From a virus (taxonomy: Duplodnaviria; Heunggongvirae; Uroviricota; Caudoviricetes): 4,140 nucleotides of DNA. Below, in pieces: positions 1-4,140 of the stretch. The position numbers and the translations under genes are program-made. Under the pieces are notes generated by a model. The model was given only the letters and a program-made list of their open reading frames with translations. It was not told the origin of the DNA and did not search any database. The DNA is taken from positions 1-4,140 of IMG/VR virus record IMGVR_UViG_2547132218_000005; one strand, 5' to 3'. Numbering within the stretch: position 1 is the stretch's first letter; each line of letters opens with the position of its first letter.

Positions 1-20
1 CAGCAAACCGTTTTGCCCGA

Positions 21-36
21 TATGGGAATTCCCATA
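21..36. repeat. 16-bp perfect palindrome TATGGGAATTCCCATA
   Basis: Self-complementary over all 16 positions, lying 11 nt downstream of the small hydrophobic ORF stop. An adjacent imperfect inverted repeat gcaaa-ccgt-tttgc lies at 3..16. Candidate protein-binding site (operator-like) or RNA hairpin. Confidence 0.55.
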
Positions 37-46
37 CGGAATGAAT

Positions 47-151
47 TCAGTTCCCCAGGCGCTCCATCAAAAACACAACCAGGCAGTAAACACCCACAAC
101 AGCAATAACAGCCAGAGCGCCTTCCATTACCAGTGAAATATCATCCGACAT
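47..151 (-). CDS. Small hydrophobic peptide (34 aa, one predicted transmembrane helix); candidate small membrane protein
   Basis: Not in the ORF track (too short). ATG 151..149 is preceded by TCACACCAAGGGAGGGAAT (strong SD, 3-4 nt spacer). My manual translation is MSDDISLVMEGALAVIAVVGVYCLVVFLMERLGN, stop TGA at 49..47. An acidic N-terminus, a ~20-residue hydrophobic stretch and a short polar C-terminus are typical of small phage/prophage membrane peptides and type I toxin-like peptides. The frame is open upstream, but the only other in-frame starts (GTG 196..194, TTG 202..200) lack an SD. Confidence 0.4.
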   Translation of the reverse strand: MSDDISLVMEGALAVIAVVGVYCLVVFLMERLGN

Positions 152-260
152 ATTCCCTCCCTTGGTGTGAATCCCGGCGAACGTTTTTACCCCCACCGAC
201 AAATAACATATACTAGAAAAGCAATAGCTATAGCAACGCCTGCAAATGCATCTGGCCGGC

Positions 261-824
261 TCATTGGTTCTCCCCCTGTGTCGCTTCTACTGCGATCTGA
301 CTGGCGTATTCGTTAATGGTAACGATAAGTTCTTGCTCGGCCTCATCCAGACAACTACCGATACCTCGCCTGTCCACTTCAGAAGCATCGAAATCTGCAC
401 GAAGCCTGGCGACCTTCAGGATTGCGGACAACACCTCATCAGGGATTGCCGGAGAGTTGGTTGACGTTTCCGAGATTATCCGAAAATTATTGGTTGACGA
501 ACCCTTATTTTCCCGAAAGTTTCCAGCCTGAAGCATGGCGGCGCGGTGACACCAGATAATCCAGCCAAGCGCCATATCCCATGCCATGTATTCTCTATCG
601 CCATTTTTTGCTCTGCGGCGATCTACAGATTCCCCGAAACGCTTCTCCATAAATAATTCATAGGCTGCCCGTTCATCCGATACTGATGCCAGTGATGCCA
701 GTGCAATTTTTAATGCGGTAAGCATGTTGTTTTGATCTTCATCGAGTCCGAACGGTATTTCATCCCGTGATGACTCAATTCCGGTAATCGTGTTCTGTAG
801 CCATTCTTTGGTTAATTCAGTCAT
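261..824 (-). CDS. Hypothetical protein (187 aa)
   Basis: ATG 824..822; long open frame with balanced composition. Weak SD (GTAGTGAAAA) and a GC stem-loop 9 nt upstream of the ATG. No family recognised. Stop TGA 263..261. Confidence 0.65.
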   Translation of the reverse strand: MTELTKEWLQNTITGIESSRDEIPFGLDEDQNNMLTALKIALASLASVSDERAAYELFMEKRFGESVDRRRAKNGDREYMAWDMALGWIIWCHRAAMLQAGNFRENKGSSTNNFRIISETSTNSPAIPDEVLSAILKVARLRADFDASEVDRRGIGSCLDEAEQELIVTINEYASQIAVEATQGENQ

Positions 825-833
825 TTTTCACTA

Positions 834-849
834 CCGCCCTTTCGGGCGG
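834..849. other. GC-rich stem-loop (6-bp stem CCGCCC/GGGCGG, 4-nt loop), function unassigned
   Basis: ccgccc-tttc-gggcgg at 834..849. On the minus-strand transcript it reads CCGCCC-GAAA-GGGCGG (GNRA-type loop) and ends 9 nt before the ATG of the 187-aa gene. No U-tract follows on either strand, so it is not a canonical intrinsic terminator. Confidence 0.5.
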
Positions 850-950
850 TCTCCTGATGTTCTGAGGGTGCAGGAATCCCTCCGGTTAAGGATTTAATAA
901 AAATCATTTCTGATTTAAATTTTCAGTGTTTAGTTGTTGGTTTATAGCCT

Positions 951-1262
951 TTATGCTTCGGCCTTATTTCTCAGCCATACACAAACAGGACCATCTTCGG
1001 TGTCATGTATCGAACCGATAAACCATCCCTCACCTTCTGGTCGCTCAGGTTCCCATGCTGAAATATCAGGGCCATCTGCGTCCAGATTAAAATCATCTTC
1101 ATCCATACTACGGATAGCCCACTGAAGATTATTTTTCTCCATCCAGGCGTTAAACTCTTCCGTTGAAATATATTCCCGACCATCACAGAATTTTTCATAT
1201 TCAGGATGCGTCCAGCAGCCATATTCATTACGTTCCACTGGCATTTCTTTAATTACGCTCAT
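951..1262 (-). CDS. Hypothetical acidic protein (103 aa)
   Basis: ATG 1262..1260 preceded by ATAAGGGGGGTAA (SD-like). Acidic, Trp-rich sequence (EYGCWTHPEYEKFCDGREY ... WEPERPEGEGWFIGSIHDTEDGPVCVWL). I do not recognise the family with confidence; resemblance to small phage DUF-type proteins is only a vague impression. The alternative 85-aa ORF at 971..1228 is in another frame of the same region and is less protein-like. Confidence 0.65.
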   Translation of the reverse strand: MSVIKEMPVERNEYGCWTHPEYEKFCDGREYISTEEFNAWMEKNNLQWAIRSMDEDDFNLDADGPDISAWEPERPEGEGWFIGSIHDTEDGPVCVWLRNKAEA

Positions 1263-1447
1263 TTACCCCCCTTATTTAATTTTCTACGACACTTTTTACA
1301 ATCATCTGGACTTTCGAATGTATCCGGCTCACGCTCATTGCCAAAATACATCCACCCACCGCAAATACTTGTTATTTCACCTTCAGCAAAATAATGATGT
1401 TTTTTCGCCATAAGTGACCTTGCCCAGCCCGGATTCGTTTTACTCAC
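1259..1447 (-). CDS. Small Cys/His-containing protein (62 aa), possible metal-binding, GTG start
   Basis: GTG at 1447..1445 is preceded by TCGCAAAGGAGGCAACAA (AAGGAGG about 6 nt upstream), a very good SD. An alternative internal ATG lies at 1411..1409. Contains HH...C(GGW)...C-K-K-C, which could form a small zinc-binding knuckle. Stop TGA 1261..1259 overlaps the next ATG (ATGA). Confidence 0.55.
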   Translation of the reverse strand: MSKTNPGWARSLMAKKHHYFAEGEITSICGGWMYFGNEREPDTFESPDDCKKCRRKLNKGGK

Positions 1448-1800
1448 TTGTTGCCTCCTTTGCGAAGCTCTGCGACTAACTCGTCACATATGTGCGTCAA
1501 AGAGCAAAGTTTGATTGCTGGATGTTCGCGCACCATCTCCACACCCTGCGCCCGCAATTCTGCCAGAAAAGCGTAGGGGTCAGTTTTTTCACTGTGGTAC
1601 ATGGCATCATAGATAATCATTGCAGCGACACCTGCCTGTCCTGCATCTGTGACGGATATATGCTCAAGGGCTACGGCCATTGCGTGTTTCAACCTCTCAT
1701 TTTCCACCTCAAGCACCACACGATTAGCCTCCAGCTCTTCTATGCGTTTTTTTGCTGCTCCCAGCTCAACACGCAGCTCCTGATAGTTAATCTCGCTCAT
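1444..1800 (-). CDS. Hypothetical protein with N-terminal coiled-coil (118 aa)
   Basis: ATG 1800..1798 preceded by GCGGGAGGAAGGAGA (strong SD). N-terminus ELRVELGAAKKRIEELEANRVVLEVENERLKHAMAVALEH has heptad-like charged/hydrophobic periodicity. Architecture is like prophage Ea22-type coiled-coil proteins, but I cannot assert family membership. Stop TGA 1446..1444 overlaps the next start (GTGA). Confidence 0.65.
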   Translation of the reverse strand: MSEINYQELRVELGAAKKRIEELEANRVVLEVENERLKHAMAVALEHISVTDAGQAGVAAMIIYDAMYHSEKTDPYAFLAELRAQGVEMVREHPAIKLCSLTHICDELVAELRKGGNK

Positions 1801-2021
1801 TCTCCTTCCTCCCGCACTGCTGTTTTATATGCCCGAAGCACATGCGATGTTTTTCCTGACACAGTGCTTCTCAGAAAGAAAATTCCACTGGTGTTTATTA
1901 CCAGATACGGGTCAGCAAGACGCAGCATATCCAGTATGTGATTATGTTTTCTTGTTTCCAGCACCGTACTTGAAATAAGCATATGTGACACGGGGCCGAA
2001 ATCATGATATCTGATTTTCAT
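1797..2021 (-). CDS. Hypothetical protein (74 aa)
   Basis: ATG at 2021..2019 preceded by CAGCAGGGTGATGAT (moderate SD), 21 nt downstream of the preceding gene's stop. Its stop TGA (1799..1797) overlaps the next gene's ATG (1800..1798) as ATGA. No recognisable motif; the composition is less protein-like than its neighbours, hence the lower confidence. Confidence 0.45.
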   Translation of the reverse strand: MKIRYHDFGPVSHMLISSTVLETRKHNHILDMLRLADPYLVINTSGIFFLRSTVSGKTSHVLRAYKTAVREEGE

Positions 2022-2042
2022 ATCATCACCCTGCTGTAAAAA

Positions 2043-2753
2043 TTACCCGTTATCTCCTGTCGTTATTTTCTGTATGACATCACGATGCTTATTAATTTCC
2101 CGCAGCGCGGCGCATAAGCGCTCCCACTTCTGAACCTGACCTTTTGCCCGGCGCAGCTCGCGGTTAGCCACATGCAGCGATGGTAAAATCAGACCATCCG
2201 GATGCTTTCTGGTGAACGACGGCTGTGACTGCACTGTGACCGCCACACTTTCCGTTTTTATTTCTTCCTGTGTTTCCGCTTCCCCGACTGGTAACGCAAC
2301 ACCTGCTGGCTGAGGAAAGGCTTTACCATCCGTTTCCGTTATGGATGCGGCTTTCGGCTCTGCCGGTAAATCAGCGCCCGGTATGCAGTACCGAAATTTA
2401 CCGCCCTGATTCACGCGAATCAGACGCCCTTTGCTGATTGCCATGGCCAGTGATGAATTCGCCCGGCGGGAGGTAATCCCGAACATCAGTGCCAGCTCAT
2501 CCGCCGTTTGTGGGCCATGATGTTCAATCGCCTCAGTCAGCATTTGCGCTGTCACTTTCGGTACCGGTGACACTGGTTCACTTTCACCAGTCTGAGTCAG
2601 CCACCACATCGACCCCTTGTTATCCGCTTCACCACGGCGCTTCAGTTTCCACAGTTCGTTGACAGCATCTTCGCGGCTGATTCCAAGGCGCGATGCCACT
2701 ACCTGTGAAGAGGCTTTTTTCAGTGCTTTCAGTGCGTCAAATACGGTTTCCAT
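2043..2753 (-). CDS. Hypothetical DNA-binding-like protein with two winged-helix-like segments separated by an acidic/Pro-rich linker (DUF1627-like, tentative)
   Basis: The track ORF is 2043..2771, but its first codon is TTG with no SD. The first ATG is at 2753..2751 ([13 protein letters not shown]...) and is preceded by GTCGGAGGAAATATTA (GGAGG about 8 nt upstream), so I place the start at 2753. Two segments ([36 protein letters not shown] and [46 protein letters not shown]) have the helix-turn-helix then basic wing pattern typical of winged-helix domains. The DUF1627 label is from memory and unverified. Stop TAA at 2045..2043, 33 nt after the P-like stop. Confidence 0.65.
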
Positions 2754-2786
2754 TAATATTTCCTCCGACAAAATCGTTTCTCAGAT

Positions 2787-3449
2787 TCAAATAAAACCAG
2801 CTGCCTTCCGGCGTTCGTATTCCTGTTTCAGCCGTTCAATTGGCGTTGGCCCTTGCGGGTGTTTCGCCCCTTCCAGTTGTCGTCGCACTGGCGGAACACT
2901 CATCCCGTTACCAACATGCTTTGCCCATTTCGTCAGTTGCCGTTCCGCAAGTCGTTTTAACTCACCTTGCGTCATCTGGCGCTCAATCCCTCTGGTACGC
3001 ATTTCGAGGCAGATGTGGTACAGCACAGGCTGTGGCCACGGGTATTTATCACTCCCGTCGTATCGCCAGGATTCATTGCGCCAGCGCCGGTACTCTTCCA
3101 TCACGGCATCCACCGTAAGACCAAATGGATTTGCCCCACTCTCCGAAATCAGCGCAACAAACTCAGCCAGGTCCGGGGGCCACGTTTCACCCGCCCGGCA
3201 GCGGTCCATGCACTGACGGCACACCAGACGGATTTGCTGTTCAGTCATCGCACCAATCTGGGCAATCCAGAGCTTCGAAGGTGCGGCCCCGTTCTTCTGA
3301 GTCCAGCGGTTCGAATACACCTCCCCCATGAGCTCCCACAGCTTCCAGGCCGTTTCCGTTGCTGATAAATCCGTTGTCACGTTCCCACTGTTCGCGTGCA
3401 GCCCGGATTTCCTGAACTGCCCGTGATGCCGTGCCACCTGATGCTGCAT
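2787..3449 (-). CDS. Replication protein P-like DnaB helicase loader
   Basis: 220-aa ORF. The C-terminal ~150 aa align with lambda P as I recall it (DKYPWPQPVLYHICLEMRTRGIERQMTQGELKRLAERQLTKWAKHVGNGMSVPPVRRQ versus ESYPWKSNAHYWLVTNLYQNMRANALTDAELRRKAADELVHMTARINRGEAIPEPVKQ, and PPDLAEFVALISESGANPFG versus PSPGQFVAWCREEASVTAGLP). ATG at 3449..3447 is preceded by CAGCAAGGGGGGAAGCC (SD-like, ~5 nt spacer). An alternative start is the internal ATG at 3248..3246 (Met68), which sits 2 nt upstream of the initiator stop codon (ATGACTGA) but has a weak SD. Start-site choice is unresolved. Confidence 0.8.
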   Translation of the reverse strand: MQHQVARHHGQFRKSGLHANSGNVTTDLSATETAWKLWELMGEVYSNRWTQKNGAAPSKLWIAQIGAMTEQQIRLVCRQCMDRCRAGETWPPDLAEFVALISESGANPFGLTVDAVMEEYRRWRNESWRYDGSDKYPWPQPVLYHICLEMRTRGIERQMTQGELKRLAERQLTKWAKHVGNGMSVPPVRRQLEGAKHPQGPTPIERLKQEYERRKAAGFI

Positions 3450-4140
3450 GGCTTCCCCCCTTGCTGACTGGTTTTACCTGTGCCCTGACGTGCTGCACGT
3501 GGCGGGCAAATTTCTGCTCCCACTGAACCTGCGTGAAAACCTTCCCCTCCGCCATCCAGTAATCCCGGAATGCGGCAAGCTCAGCAGGTGTAAATTCCGG
3601 CTCAGGCAGAGCCATACCCCACACTGCTGCCCGTTGTCGAAAATCCGGCGACGGCTGCCAGACAGTAGTCATCGAAAATTTCCCGATCGGTTCGCTCAGG
3701 CCGTCCAGGTATTCAGGTTCGGCTGTCTGCAACGGCGCACCATTCGACTCACTGGTCGGAATACTCTCGCGCGCGTTATGTGTGGGGTTTAATTCTGTAT
3801 CTGTATCTTTATCTGTATCTTTATCTGTCGTGACTTGTCGTGACAGATGCGTGACACGTCGTGACTCATCGTGACAATCAGCATTATGTTTCCGCAGCTT
3901 TTCCCGCTCCCGCTGCGCTCTCTTGCGCTCTGCCGGGGATTTTGCCGTTTGCGAAACGTTACCATTGTCCTCTTTCAGCACCTGACGTTTTTCCCATCCG
4001 GAAATAAGGTCACCATCCAGAACCCGCCCCTGCATTGCATGCAAAATTGAATCAATTACGTCTTCCGTCACATCAAGCGCACTTGCTAAATCTTCCGTCG
4101 TGACATCAATGTGACCACGTAGTGACACGCCGTGACATGT
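3241..4140 (-). CDS. Replication initiator (lambda O-like role), 5'-partial, with C-terminal DnaT-like (primosomal protein I) domain
   Basis: ORF track gives 3241..4128, but its first codon is GTG and the frame stays open upstream to the window edge (in-frame codons 4140..4129 read T-C-H-G), so the true start is beyond 4140. The segment IGKFSMTTVWQPSPDFRQRAAVWGMALPEPEFTPAELAAFRDYWMAEGKVFTQVQWEQKFARHVQHVRAQV aligns closely with the C-terminal domain of E. coli DnaT as I recall it ([63 protein letters not shown]). Position directly upstream of a P-like loader gene fits the lambdoid O-P arrangement. The middle of the protein is low-complexity (K/R/E-rich, TDKD repeats) and coincides with the DNA repeats described below. 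Stop TGA at 3243..3241. Confidence 0.8.
   Translation of the reverse strand, partial: TCHGVSLRGHIDVTTEDLASALDVTEDVIDSILHAMQGRVLDGDLISGWEKRQVLKEDNGNVSQTAKSPAERKRAQREREKLRKHNADCHDESRRVTHLSRQVTTDKDTDKDTDTELNPTHNARESIPTSESNGAPLQTAEPEYLDGLSEPIGKFSMTTVWQPSPDFRQRAAVWGMALPEPEFTPAELAAFRDYWMAEGKVFTQVQWEQKFARHVQHVRAQVKPVSKGGSHAASGGTASRAVQEIRAAREQWERDNGFISNGNGLEAVGAHGGGVFEPLDSEERGRTFEALDCPDWCDD
3794..3829. repeat. Tandem hexamer repeat (TCTGTA/TCTTTA) x 6, AT-rich, abutting iteron cluster A
   Basis: tctgta tctgta tcttta tctgta tcttta tctgtc at 3794..3829, about 70% A+T. On the coding (minus) strand it encodes the TDKDTDKDTD segment of the initiator. Confidence 0.8.
3828..3875. repeat. Iteron-like direct repeat cluster A: 5 x (T/G)CGTGAC at 10-11 bp spacing; candidate origin iterons
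   Basis: Units ctgTCGTGAC (3825..3834), ttgTCGTGAC (3835..3844), agatGCGTGAC (3845..3855), acgTCGTGAC (3856..3865), tcaTCGTGAC (3866..3875). GTGAC cores end at 3834, 3844, 3855, 3865, 3875. Because the spacing is not a multiple of 3, the same DNA motif is read in all three frames of the initiator gene (C-H, S-R, V-T, L-S-R, V-T), so the repetition is at the DNA level, not a peptide repeat. Confidence 0.6.
4098..4136. repeat. Iteron-like direct repeat cluster B: 4 x GTGAC at 10-11 bp spacing, may continue beyond the window end
   Basis: ccgTCGTGAC (4095..4104), atcaATGTGAC (4105..4115), cacgtAGTGAC (4116..4126), acgcCGTGAC (4127..4136). Same orientation and core as cluster A; flanking bases are more variable. 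The window ends 4 nt after the last copy. Confidence 0.5.

Follow-up and report, generated by a model that had tools for sequence, protein, structure and literature searches.

Whether two core replication genes genuinely share a long piece of DNA, read in two frames of the same strand, is the question raised by a 4,140-nucleotide (nt) stretch of viral DNA, hereafter the window (positions 1 to 4,140 of IMG/VR record IMGVR_UViG_2547132218_000005). A replication initiator gene (3241..4140, minus strand) enters the window with its N-terminal ~52 codons past the window edge and stops at a TGA at 3243..3241, and the full gene of a P-family helicase loader, hereafter P, occupies 2787..3449 (minus strand) and encodes 220 amino acids (aa) from an ATG at 3447..3449. 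The two open reading frames (ORFs) overlap out of frame by 209 nt (3241..3449, minus strand). A preliminary description of the window had proposed this layout, and the ORF coordinates and sequence confirmed it, together with the TGA and the ATG with its Shine-Dalgarno (SD) motif. That description offered three readings: both frames are translated, P starts at an internal ATG at 3248, or one frame carries a frameshift. Conservation, selection and predicted structure favour the first of these. The locus very probably contains a genuine, evolutionarily maintained same-strand overlap of two core replication genes, both products of which would be translated in vivo.

The shared DNA comprises the last 69 codons of the initiator and the first 68 codons of P. 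The P frame is offset by +1 from the initiator codon start, and the wobble position of P is the first codon position of the initiator. The P frame opens at 3473 and contains in-frame starts at ATG 3449, GTG 3437, GTG 3380, ATG 3329 (Met41), GTG 3320 and ATG 3248 (Met68). The initiator is present in the window as a 295-aa fragment (ORF 3241..4128, minus strand, open to the window edge) of a protein that is 347 aa long in the 100% identical locus of Escherichia coli O157:H7 (PGAP WP_001262402.1). It matches phrog_1408/3992 (replication initiation / primosomal protein) and carries a DnaT-like DNA-binding domain at 3478..3678 (minus strand; aa 151-217 of the fragment), which lies above the threshold of Pfam PF17948 (63 bits vs a cut-off of 25) and is modelled by AlphaFold2 with a predicted local distance difference test score (pLDDT) of 72-85 over fragment aa 150-218. 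P lies above the threshold of PF06992 (Phage_lambda_P; 57.9 bits vs a cut-off of 26, P aa 58-187), and phrog_109, 'P-like helicase loader', spans P aa 18-220 (E = 1.5e-62). By the predicted role of the PF06992 family, P would bind host DnaB and deliver it to the initiator-origin complex.

Conservation and frame-specific selection

The double-open stretch is only marginally to mildly unusual when the window sequence is taken alone. With a +2-frame stop density of 0.053 per codon, as found in the P-only part of the gene family, the chance of 69 open codons is p ~0.02, and exact dynamic programming conditioned on the P protein and the codon usage of the family gives p = 0.058. The case against chance comes from conservation across lineages. 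Relatives' DNA was collected by a scan of one genome per species, which returned 38 loci; L042-L045, which match P residues 92-220 only and lack the WPPDLAEF motif, were set aside. The same layout is found in ~32 loci from more than 15 genera of Enterobacterales, where the initiator ORF extends 149-224 nt past the homologous P ATG and is always in the same relative frame. These genera include Escherichia, Citrobacter, Enterobacter, Klebsiella, Pluralibacter, Phytobacter, Kluyvera and Scandinavium, as well as Salmonella, Pectobacterium, Serratia, Erwinia, Rouxiella, Samsonia, Limnobaculum and Buttiauxella. Multiplied across 16 diverged loci, the per-locus open-frame probabilities come to 5e-24 for the overlap in full and 4e-12 for the 3' half alone, although such products overstate significance, as the loci are phylogenetically related. 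The pairwise difference at P wobble sites among the 16 loci has a mean of 0.54 and a minimum of 0.27, which makes them largely, not fully, independent. Both reading frames are thus open across diverged relatives beyond chance.

Four loci without the architecture were considered as counter-examples and rejected, either as prophage remnants (L031, L039) or as pseudogenes with frameshifts in both genes (L038, L041). In the two remnants, from Erwinia sp. and another Erwinia isolate (L031, 1285-2184; L039, 516-2120), the P gene lies beside ttcA or a PTS (transporter) gene, and the prophage DNA is apparently severed right at the initiator, with L031 still showing decayed remains of the tail frame.

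The initiator frame is, on these sequence data, kept open to a fairly fixed end, with its stop in the same alignment column in 25 of 32 loci. T occurs at 0/85 of the stop-prone, P-synonymous wobble sites of the 16 diverged loci, compared with 121/456 (26.5%) of equivalent sites in the P-only region. If synonymous codons were chosen freely for each P protein, the chance of an initiator frame without stops over the 3' half would be 0.2-0.28 per locus. The absence of T in loci that differ at 54% of P wobble sites on average argues that the frame is maintained. The initiator motif ..EPLD.EER.. was rejected as independent evidence for the end of the tail, as it is induced by SNRWTxKNG of P, which fixes two of every three bases.

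An alignment of 31 P proteins, down to 46% identity, shows that residues 31-67 are among the best conserved of the protein. M41, R48, W49, K52, N53, G54, P57 and W61 hardly vary, and Met41 is preceded by a conserved AWxLWE (..AWxLWExM). Residues 1-30 are variable and contain indels.

Selection in the two frames was estimated from all sequence pairs, with sites and differences classed as nonsynonymous or synonymous in each frame by OLGenie logic (PMC7531306) and with bootstrapping over codons; the ratios derive from pairwise counts and are not tree-aware. The main set comprised 19 sequences with DnaT-type initiators. In the rates given here the first letter refers to the P frame and the second to the initiator frame (N, nonsynonymous; S, synonymous), dNN/dNS reports on the initiator and dNN/dSN on P, and ranges in brackets are bootstrap ranges. 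At P aa 2-18 (dNN 0.156, dSN 0.180, dNS 0.484) the ratio is 0.32 (0.13-0.63) for the initiator and 0.86 (0.37-1.68) for P. At P aa 19-35 (dNN 0.251, dSN 0.470, dNS 0.431) the two ratios are 0.58 (0.40-0.86) and 0.53 (0.28-0.94), respectively. At P aa 36-67 (dNN 0.124, dSN 0.595, dNS 0.115) the initiator ratio rises to 1.08 (0.58-2.09) and the P ratio falls to 0.21 (0.11-0.33). The P-only control (dNN 0.145, dSN 0.681, dNS 0.115) gives 0.21 for the P frame and 1.27 for a fake initiator frame, and the initiator-only control (dNN 0.241, dSN 0.247, dNS 0.674) gives 0.36 for the initiator frame and 0.98 for a fake P frame. The excess of SN over NN in the 5' part was considered as a sign of amino acid selection on P residues 1-18 and rejected, given the 0.98 of the initiator-only control, a marginal bootstrap value (0.045) and its disappearance in a more distant set of loci.

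Selection thus divides the overlap between the two frames instead of doubling up on it: the initiator frame is constrained over the 5' ~90 nt (dNN/dNS 0.32-0.45 in the 5' part) and the P frame over the 3' ~115 nt. Each frame is under purifying selection, but in different halves, and double constraint on the same codons is only marginal (0.53 and 0.58 at P aa 19-35). The preliminary description counted 69 codons readable in two frames; they are readable, but they are not doubly constrained, and the constraint switches frame near P codons 19-30. Differences at codon positions 1, 2 and 3 of P aa 7-18 are 0.04, 0.49 and 0.07, which places the variation on the initiator wobble, and from ~P aa 31 on position 3 dominates. 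In 13 distant loci with other initiator bodies, aa 2-30 give 0.70 (0.56-0.84) for the initiator frame and 0.99 for the P frame, and aa 31-63 give 1.03 and 0.50. Six close E. coli-like sequences exhibit the same pattern, with too few changes for ratios.

Predicted structures and the start of P

The two halves of the overlap also differ in the structures predicted for them. In the AlphaFold2 model of the 220-aa P, aa 1-24 (3378..3449, minus strand) form an N-terminal leader that is predicted to be disordered (pLDDT 39-52), and the P-frame-constrained aa 25-67 (3249..3377, minus strand) form three predicted helices (25-45, 47-53 and 59-67) at a pLDDT of ~81. The initiator model has a confident DnaT-like domain followed by a linker and then a predicted helix at fragment aa 233-251 (TASRAVQEIRAAREQWERD; 3376..3432, minus strand), which is constrained in the initiator frame and is encoded by the same DNA as the sequence-unconstrained P aa 6-25. 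The remaining end, fragment aa 252-295 (3244..3375, minus strand), looks disordered (pLDDT 29-40), and its dNN/dNS is the same as that of the non-coding control, so that it has no amino acid constraint of its own while the frame is kept open. According to the models, each protein is thus predicted to be disordered where the other is constrained. The preliminary description saw no obvious homologous support for the last ~65 residues of the initiator, and this holds for the last ~40 but not for fragment residues ~233-251, which are conserved and under purifying selection even on unrelated initiator bodies.

P resembles lambda P in fold and domain order, with a disordered leader, helical domains II and III and a C-terminal helix. 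Foldseek ranks lambda P chains from the DnaB-P complex 9oa1 first to third for the model (E about 1e-5, probability 1.0, 193-227 columns), with TM-scores of only 0.4-0.5, as expected for flexible multi-domain chains. In lambda P, domain I (residues 1-29) is an N-terminal 'lasso' that is likely intrinsically disordered, domain II (~30-119) builds the loader spiral, and domain III and a C-terminal lasso follow (PMC12661323). The leader of P would thus be the counterpart of domain I, and aa 25-67 that of the first part of domain II. A phmmer alignment (E = 0.0025) places P aa 69 at lambda P residue 81, and a start at Met68 would therefore drop the equivalent of lambda residues 30-80, approximately half of domain II. 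The suggestion that similarity to lambda P begins upstream of Met68 was borne out by Pfam (from aa 58), phrog_109 (from aa 18), Foldseek, and BLASTP against P of phage phiV10 (from aa 18).

The start of the 220-aa P appears to be selected at the nucleotide level. The homologous ATG is present in 32/32 loci, embedded in initiator codons (CAT|GCA in the window) that read NAT|Gnn throughout, whereas NAY codons in non-overlapping parts of these genes end in T in only 47% of cases. The first codon is CAT, AAT, TAT or GAT and the second GCA, GCG, GTA, GTG, GAG, GAA or GGT, such that the encoded initiator amino acids vary while A-T-G is fixed. At least 5 of the 6 bases of AGGAGG lie 5-9 nt before the ATG in 24/32 loci, mostly as the initiator Gly-Gly codons GGA GGT; in the window the SD-like motif AAGGGGGGAAG (3452..3462, minus strand) lies inside the initiator coding sequence, in codons K-G-G-S. 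The downstream gene therefore has conserved start signals of its own inside the upstream gene. The only other widely conserved starts are Met41 (3327..3329, minus strand; 31/32 loci) and Met68 (3246..3248, minus strand; 23/32). As P residues 31-40 are conserved and constrained in the P frame upstream of Met41, translation should start before them, and ATG 3449 is the sole conserved candidate that does so.

Annotations have in practice not settled on a start. Protein databases hold P in forms of 216-223 aa, ~180 aa, 153 aa and 140 aa. In each of the E. coli loci inspected (e.g. L003 2393-2854, L004 1485-1946), PGAP starts P at Met68, which makes the protein 153 aa and the overlap 8 nt long, and the annotation of phage Rac-SA53 does likewise; one Stx-phage record uses a later ATG for a 140-aa P; and PGAP calls a P of 180-181 aa, starting at Met41, in Citrobacter, Klebsiella, Salmonella, Enterobacter, Brenneria and Pectobacterium. 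Both the 153-aa and the 180-181-aa calls appear to be N-terminally truncated. The overlap region occurs at 2,386 places in 1,209 of 5,426 complete E. coli genomes (about a fifth), with up to 6 copies in each.

A P made mainly from Met41, which would be 180 aa long and leave ATG 3449 minor or non-functional, would account for the near-universal ATG at this position, for the PGAP calls in other genera together with the start of phrog_33198 at Met41, and for the lack of measurable amino acid constraint on residues 1-30. It is nonetheless unlikely, given that residues 31-40 are conserved with P-frame periodicity upstream of Met41, that the predicted helix 25-45 runs across it, and that ATG 3449 and its SD motif are kept at the nucleotide level despite the synonymous freedom of the initiator. 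The sole SD-like bases before Met41 in the window (GGGAG), moreover, lie just 3 nt from its ATG. An 89-nt overlap would stay even if P did start there, and a shorter isoform from Met41 may coexist with the 220-aa form. A start at Met68 would instead couple P to termination of the initiator through the ATGACTGA arrangement with TGA 3243..3241, with an 8-nt overlap and the upstream P frame as a leftover. ATG-ACT-GA does resemble the ATGA coupling of lambda O/P and phiV10, and the PGAP and Rac-SA53 annotations consistently adopt this start. Yet Met68 is absent in 9/32 loci, replaced in many relatives by Leu, Phe or Cys, and residues 36-67 upstream of it are as purified as the rest of P (0.21 vs 0.21), have eight nearly invariant positions and form confident helices that align with lambda P domain II and phiV10 P. 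The preliminary description had envisaged that homologues might uniformly start at the Met68 equivalent with nothing conserved upstream, which is not what the relatives exhibit, and initiation at Met68 is very improbable.

Equally improbable is that one frame is broken, whether by a frameshift mutation, a sequencing error or decay of a cryptic prophage, or that a programmed frameshift yields an initiator-P fusion. Rare fused ORFs do exist (P0178, 496 aa; P0201, 481 aa; P0106, 333 aa), phrog_15931 (482 positions) matches both window proteins and has both readings in profile columns 279-347, and some loci are clearly degraded (L038, L041). Each fusion, however, is known from one or two entries, which come for the most part from raw read assemblies, and the point of the frame switch differs between them, whereas clusters with two separate ORFs contain hundreds to thousands of members. 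Many independent O157:H7 assemblies match the window at 100% identity, neither frame is disrupted across genera, and a conserved SD motif 5-9 nt before the ATG fits initiation over a shift site, although no search aimed at a slippery site was made.

Several observations weigh against a maintained 209-nt overlap, in addition to the relatedness of the loci noted above. The initiator stops ~12 codons earlier in L026, L040 and the Salmonella bongori-type P0202/P0247; the preliminary description had considered that a stop in one frame inside 3249..3449 of related sequences would speak against a double reading, and although the frames are otherwise open in relatives and these lineages still overlap with P by at least 149 nt, such truncations, together with the lack of selection on the last ~40 initiator residues, suggest that the unconstrained end of the overlap may be tolerated without being of use. 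P residues 1-30 have no clear amino acid constraint (dNN/dSN 0.86-0.99), and the openness of the P frame over them is weakly informative (~0.64 per locus, product 7e-4); the long start thus rests on conservation of the ATG and SD motif and on residues 31-40. The retention of Met41 in 31/32 loci and the consistent 153-aa P of RefSeq/PGAP also point away from the long form.

With a genuine overlap favoured, ribosomes translating the initiator would read through to TGA 3241, and other ribosomes would start independently at the internal SD motif and ATG 3449, in the +1 frame, to produce the 220-aa P-type helicase loader. The first ~90 nt would be held by the initiator, as a short conserved helix after the flexible linker that follows the DnaT-like domain, and would supply P with no more than a disordered N-terminal leader of free sequence, comparable to lambda P domain I. 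P would hold the last ~115 nt, as the first three helices of domain II, and these would supply the initiator with a disordered C-terminal end that is free in sequence as long as the frame is kept open.

The initiator tail and its loader

The conserved tail of the initiator has the motif ...S.AvQ.IRAARe.WER... followed by G..G..l.epLd.EER..., and is found on bodies of very different composition: DnaT alone, DUF1376 with DnaT, DUF1376 without DnaT, Phage_rep_O, HTH_36/DnaD_N, and bodies with no Pfam match. Similarity among tail-bearing initiators starts just upstream of the SD motif of P, and the DNA of the tail helix has an initiator-frame dNN/dNS of 0.64 (0.49-0.81) in the distant set. The 80-aa tail alone, used as a protein query, returned 8 short E. 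coli fragments only. The HTH_36-type body of L025/L040, which carries the tail, is also present in L046 beside a DnaC-like ATPase; the L046 initiator (886-1848) ends in ...NHISEPDTEIPPGFRG and does not overlap its loader. The initiator of SPN1S has the same ending as L046, of the type ...EPD(S/T)EIPPGFRG. The initiators of phiV10 and Tyrion differ in their N-terminal bodies, share the same DnaT-like domain and carry a third tail, VPHWNSPEAWEDFL, beside another P subfamily that they overlap by 4 nt. The initiator C-terminal tails hence follow the loader and not the body to which they are attached. These loader-specific tail types, present at L046 886-1848, L048 1267-2082, L047 1246-2073 and L049 1321-2088, cut across initiator bodies and may represent a general docking-peptide code.

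The C-terminal part of lambda O is known from lambda genetics to bind P. Together with the sorting of tails by loader, we infer from this that the tail helix is a docking peptide for the cognate P-DnaB complex. Since the P gene itself encodes the tail, the two are passed on together regardless of the body that recombines upstream. P of phiV10 aligns from P residue 18 and is not overlapped; the P frame is therefore the older one in the 3' half, and the initiator end was overprinted on it. The overlap could be a co-inherited interaction cassette, with a loader-docking helix encoded in the second frame of the 5' end of the loader gene, and a P start lying under translating ribosomes may also throttle the synthesis of a potentially toxic loader. 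This proposal is tentative and rather less likely to be right than wrong: the pLDDT of the tail helix is low (45-56), and docking is read from the distribution of the tails only.

Comparable systems, the replication module and implications

The window has the gene order of lambda O-P, with an origin-binding initiator (putative in the window) that carries iterons in its own gene followed by a P-family DnaB loader. Lambda O spans 38686-39585 and P 39582-40283 of the lambda map, an overlap of 4 nt (ATGA) compared with 209 nt here. The initiator differs from lambda O in having a DnaT-like C-terminal domain in place of the C-terminal domain of O, and P differs from lambda P in its low identity (phmmer E = 0.0025), although it passes the PF06992 threshold, matches the 9oa1 chains and shares the disordered leader and subsequent helical domain that correspond to domains I and II. 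The Uetakevirus phages phiV10, epsilon15 and Tyrion have the same domain pair: a PF06992 loader preceded by a DnaT-like initiator whose DnaT-like domain is 51% identical. Unlike in the window, only 4 nt are shared between their genes, the initiator ends ~25 residues past the DnaT-like domain with the shared tail given above, and P is 261 aa long; this pair looks like the same module without the overprinting. DopC/DopE of Cellvibrionales and Oceanospirillales, described as a domesticated lambda O/P-like pair, likewise place a helix-turn-helix initiator-like protein with a DnaT C-terminal motif beside a P-family protein, but are chromosomal and domesticated, with no iterons reported and no mention of an overlap in that paper (Brezellec et al. 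2017, PMC5509034).

Among the classical overprinted same-strand overlaps of phages are phiX174 D/E and A/B/K, MS2 L, and lambda Rz/Rz1. As in those cases, the DNA here is read in two frames, with one constrained and the other giving a product that is disordered or compositionally odd. Here, however, neither gene is nested, the 3' end of one essential replication gene joins the 5' end of the next, and the constraint is partitioned along an overlap that coincides with a recombination-module boundary. The pattern of overprinting in phages is well known and has been reviewed (PMC8227390), and co-directional prokaryotic overlaps of more than 60 bp have been questioned as functional or mispredicted (Palleja et al. 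2008, PMC2478687); the present overlap belongs to that length class, but here it is the short-overlap annotation that appears to be mispredicted. Literature searches of open-access texts found no description of this initiator-P overlap.

Prophage DNA of E. coli O157:H7 strains matches the window at 100% identity, and many other E. coli prophages, phage Rac-SA53 and PPompW prophages match it at 85-98%. The gene order of the identical O157:H7 locus is LexA-like repressor, Cro/CI, YdaT, DnaT-like initiator, 'replication protein P' and DUF1627, and the region is a lambdoid (Rac/PPompW-type) prophage replication module. Iteron-like GTCACG repeats spaced by ~10-11 nt lie inside the initiator gene at 3829..3875 (minus strand), followed by an AT-rich GATAAAGATACAGAT repeat at 3794-3828 (minus strand; repeat families D1-D3), and the iteron-like repeat region as a whole covers 3794-3875 and 4094-4137 (minus strand). 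GTCACG/TGTCACG occurs in 8 copies compared with 1.6 expected, 5 of which fall within 3829-3875, and 0/200 shuffles reach 8. The adjoining AT-rich 12-nt tandem repeat GATAAAGATACA encodes DKDTDKDTDT. Together, the GTCACG repeats and AT-rich repeat probably form the replication origin, in an arrangement like that of ori-lambda within gene O. Databases contain dozens of 'partial' initiator proteins of 318-329 aa, with lengths one residue apart, and this ladder suggests that short-read assemblies habitually end within the iterons or between prophage copies of nearly the same sequence.

Downstream of P, a DUF1627 gene (2043-2771, minus strand) encodes an N-terminal winged-helix-like region with weak matches to Ren-like exclusion proteins and MarR/TrmB-type regulators; its start is a TTG in the ORF list (242 aa), compared with 238 aa in PGAP. 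A run of small genes after the replication module (951-1800, minus strand) contains 4-nt ATGA-type junctions at 1797-1800, 1444-1447 and 1259-1262, the usual short coupling overlaps, in contrast to the 209-nt overlap.

The overlap has practical and evolutionary consequences. The RefSeq P of E. coli lacks the N-terminal leader and approximately half of the domain II equivalent, and cloning or modelling from RefSeq therefore uses a truncated loader. Long co-directional overlaps in bacterial sequence are usually dismissed as mispredictions (PMC2478687). The present one is a counter-example that is shared by many loci, conserved to great depth and backed by clean internal controls, and in it DNA is shared by pairing an ordered segment of one protein with a disordered segment of the other. 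Initiator bodies and the loader module recombine at a boundary within a gene, which provides a testable account of how initiators and loaders stay specific for each other when modules are shuffled. If the overlap is indeed an interaction cassette, any initiator body, whether DnaT-like, DUF1376, lambda-O-like or HTH_36/DnaD-like, that recombines just upstream of the SD motif of P would gain the cognate docking peptide automatically, which would be a physical way to keep two interacting proteins matched in mosaic phage genomes.

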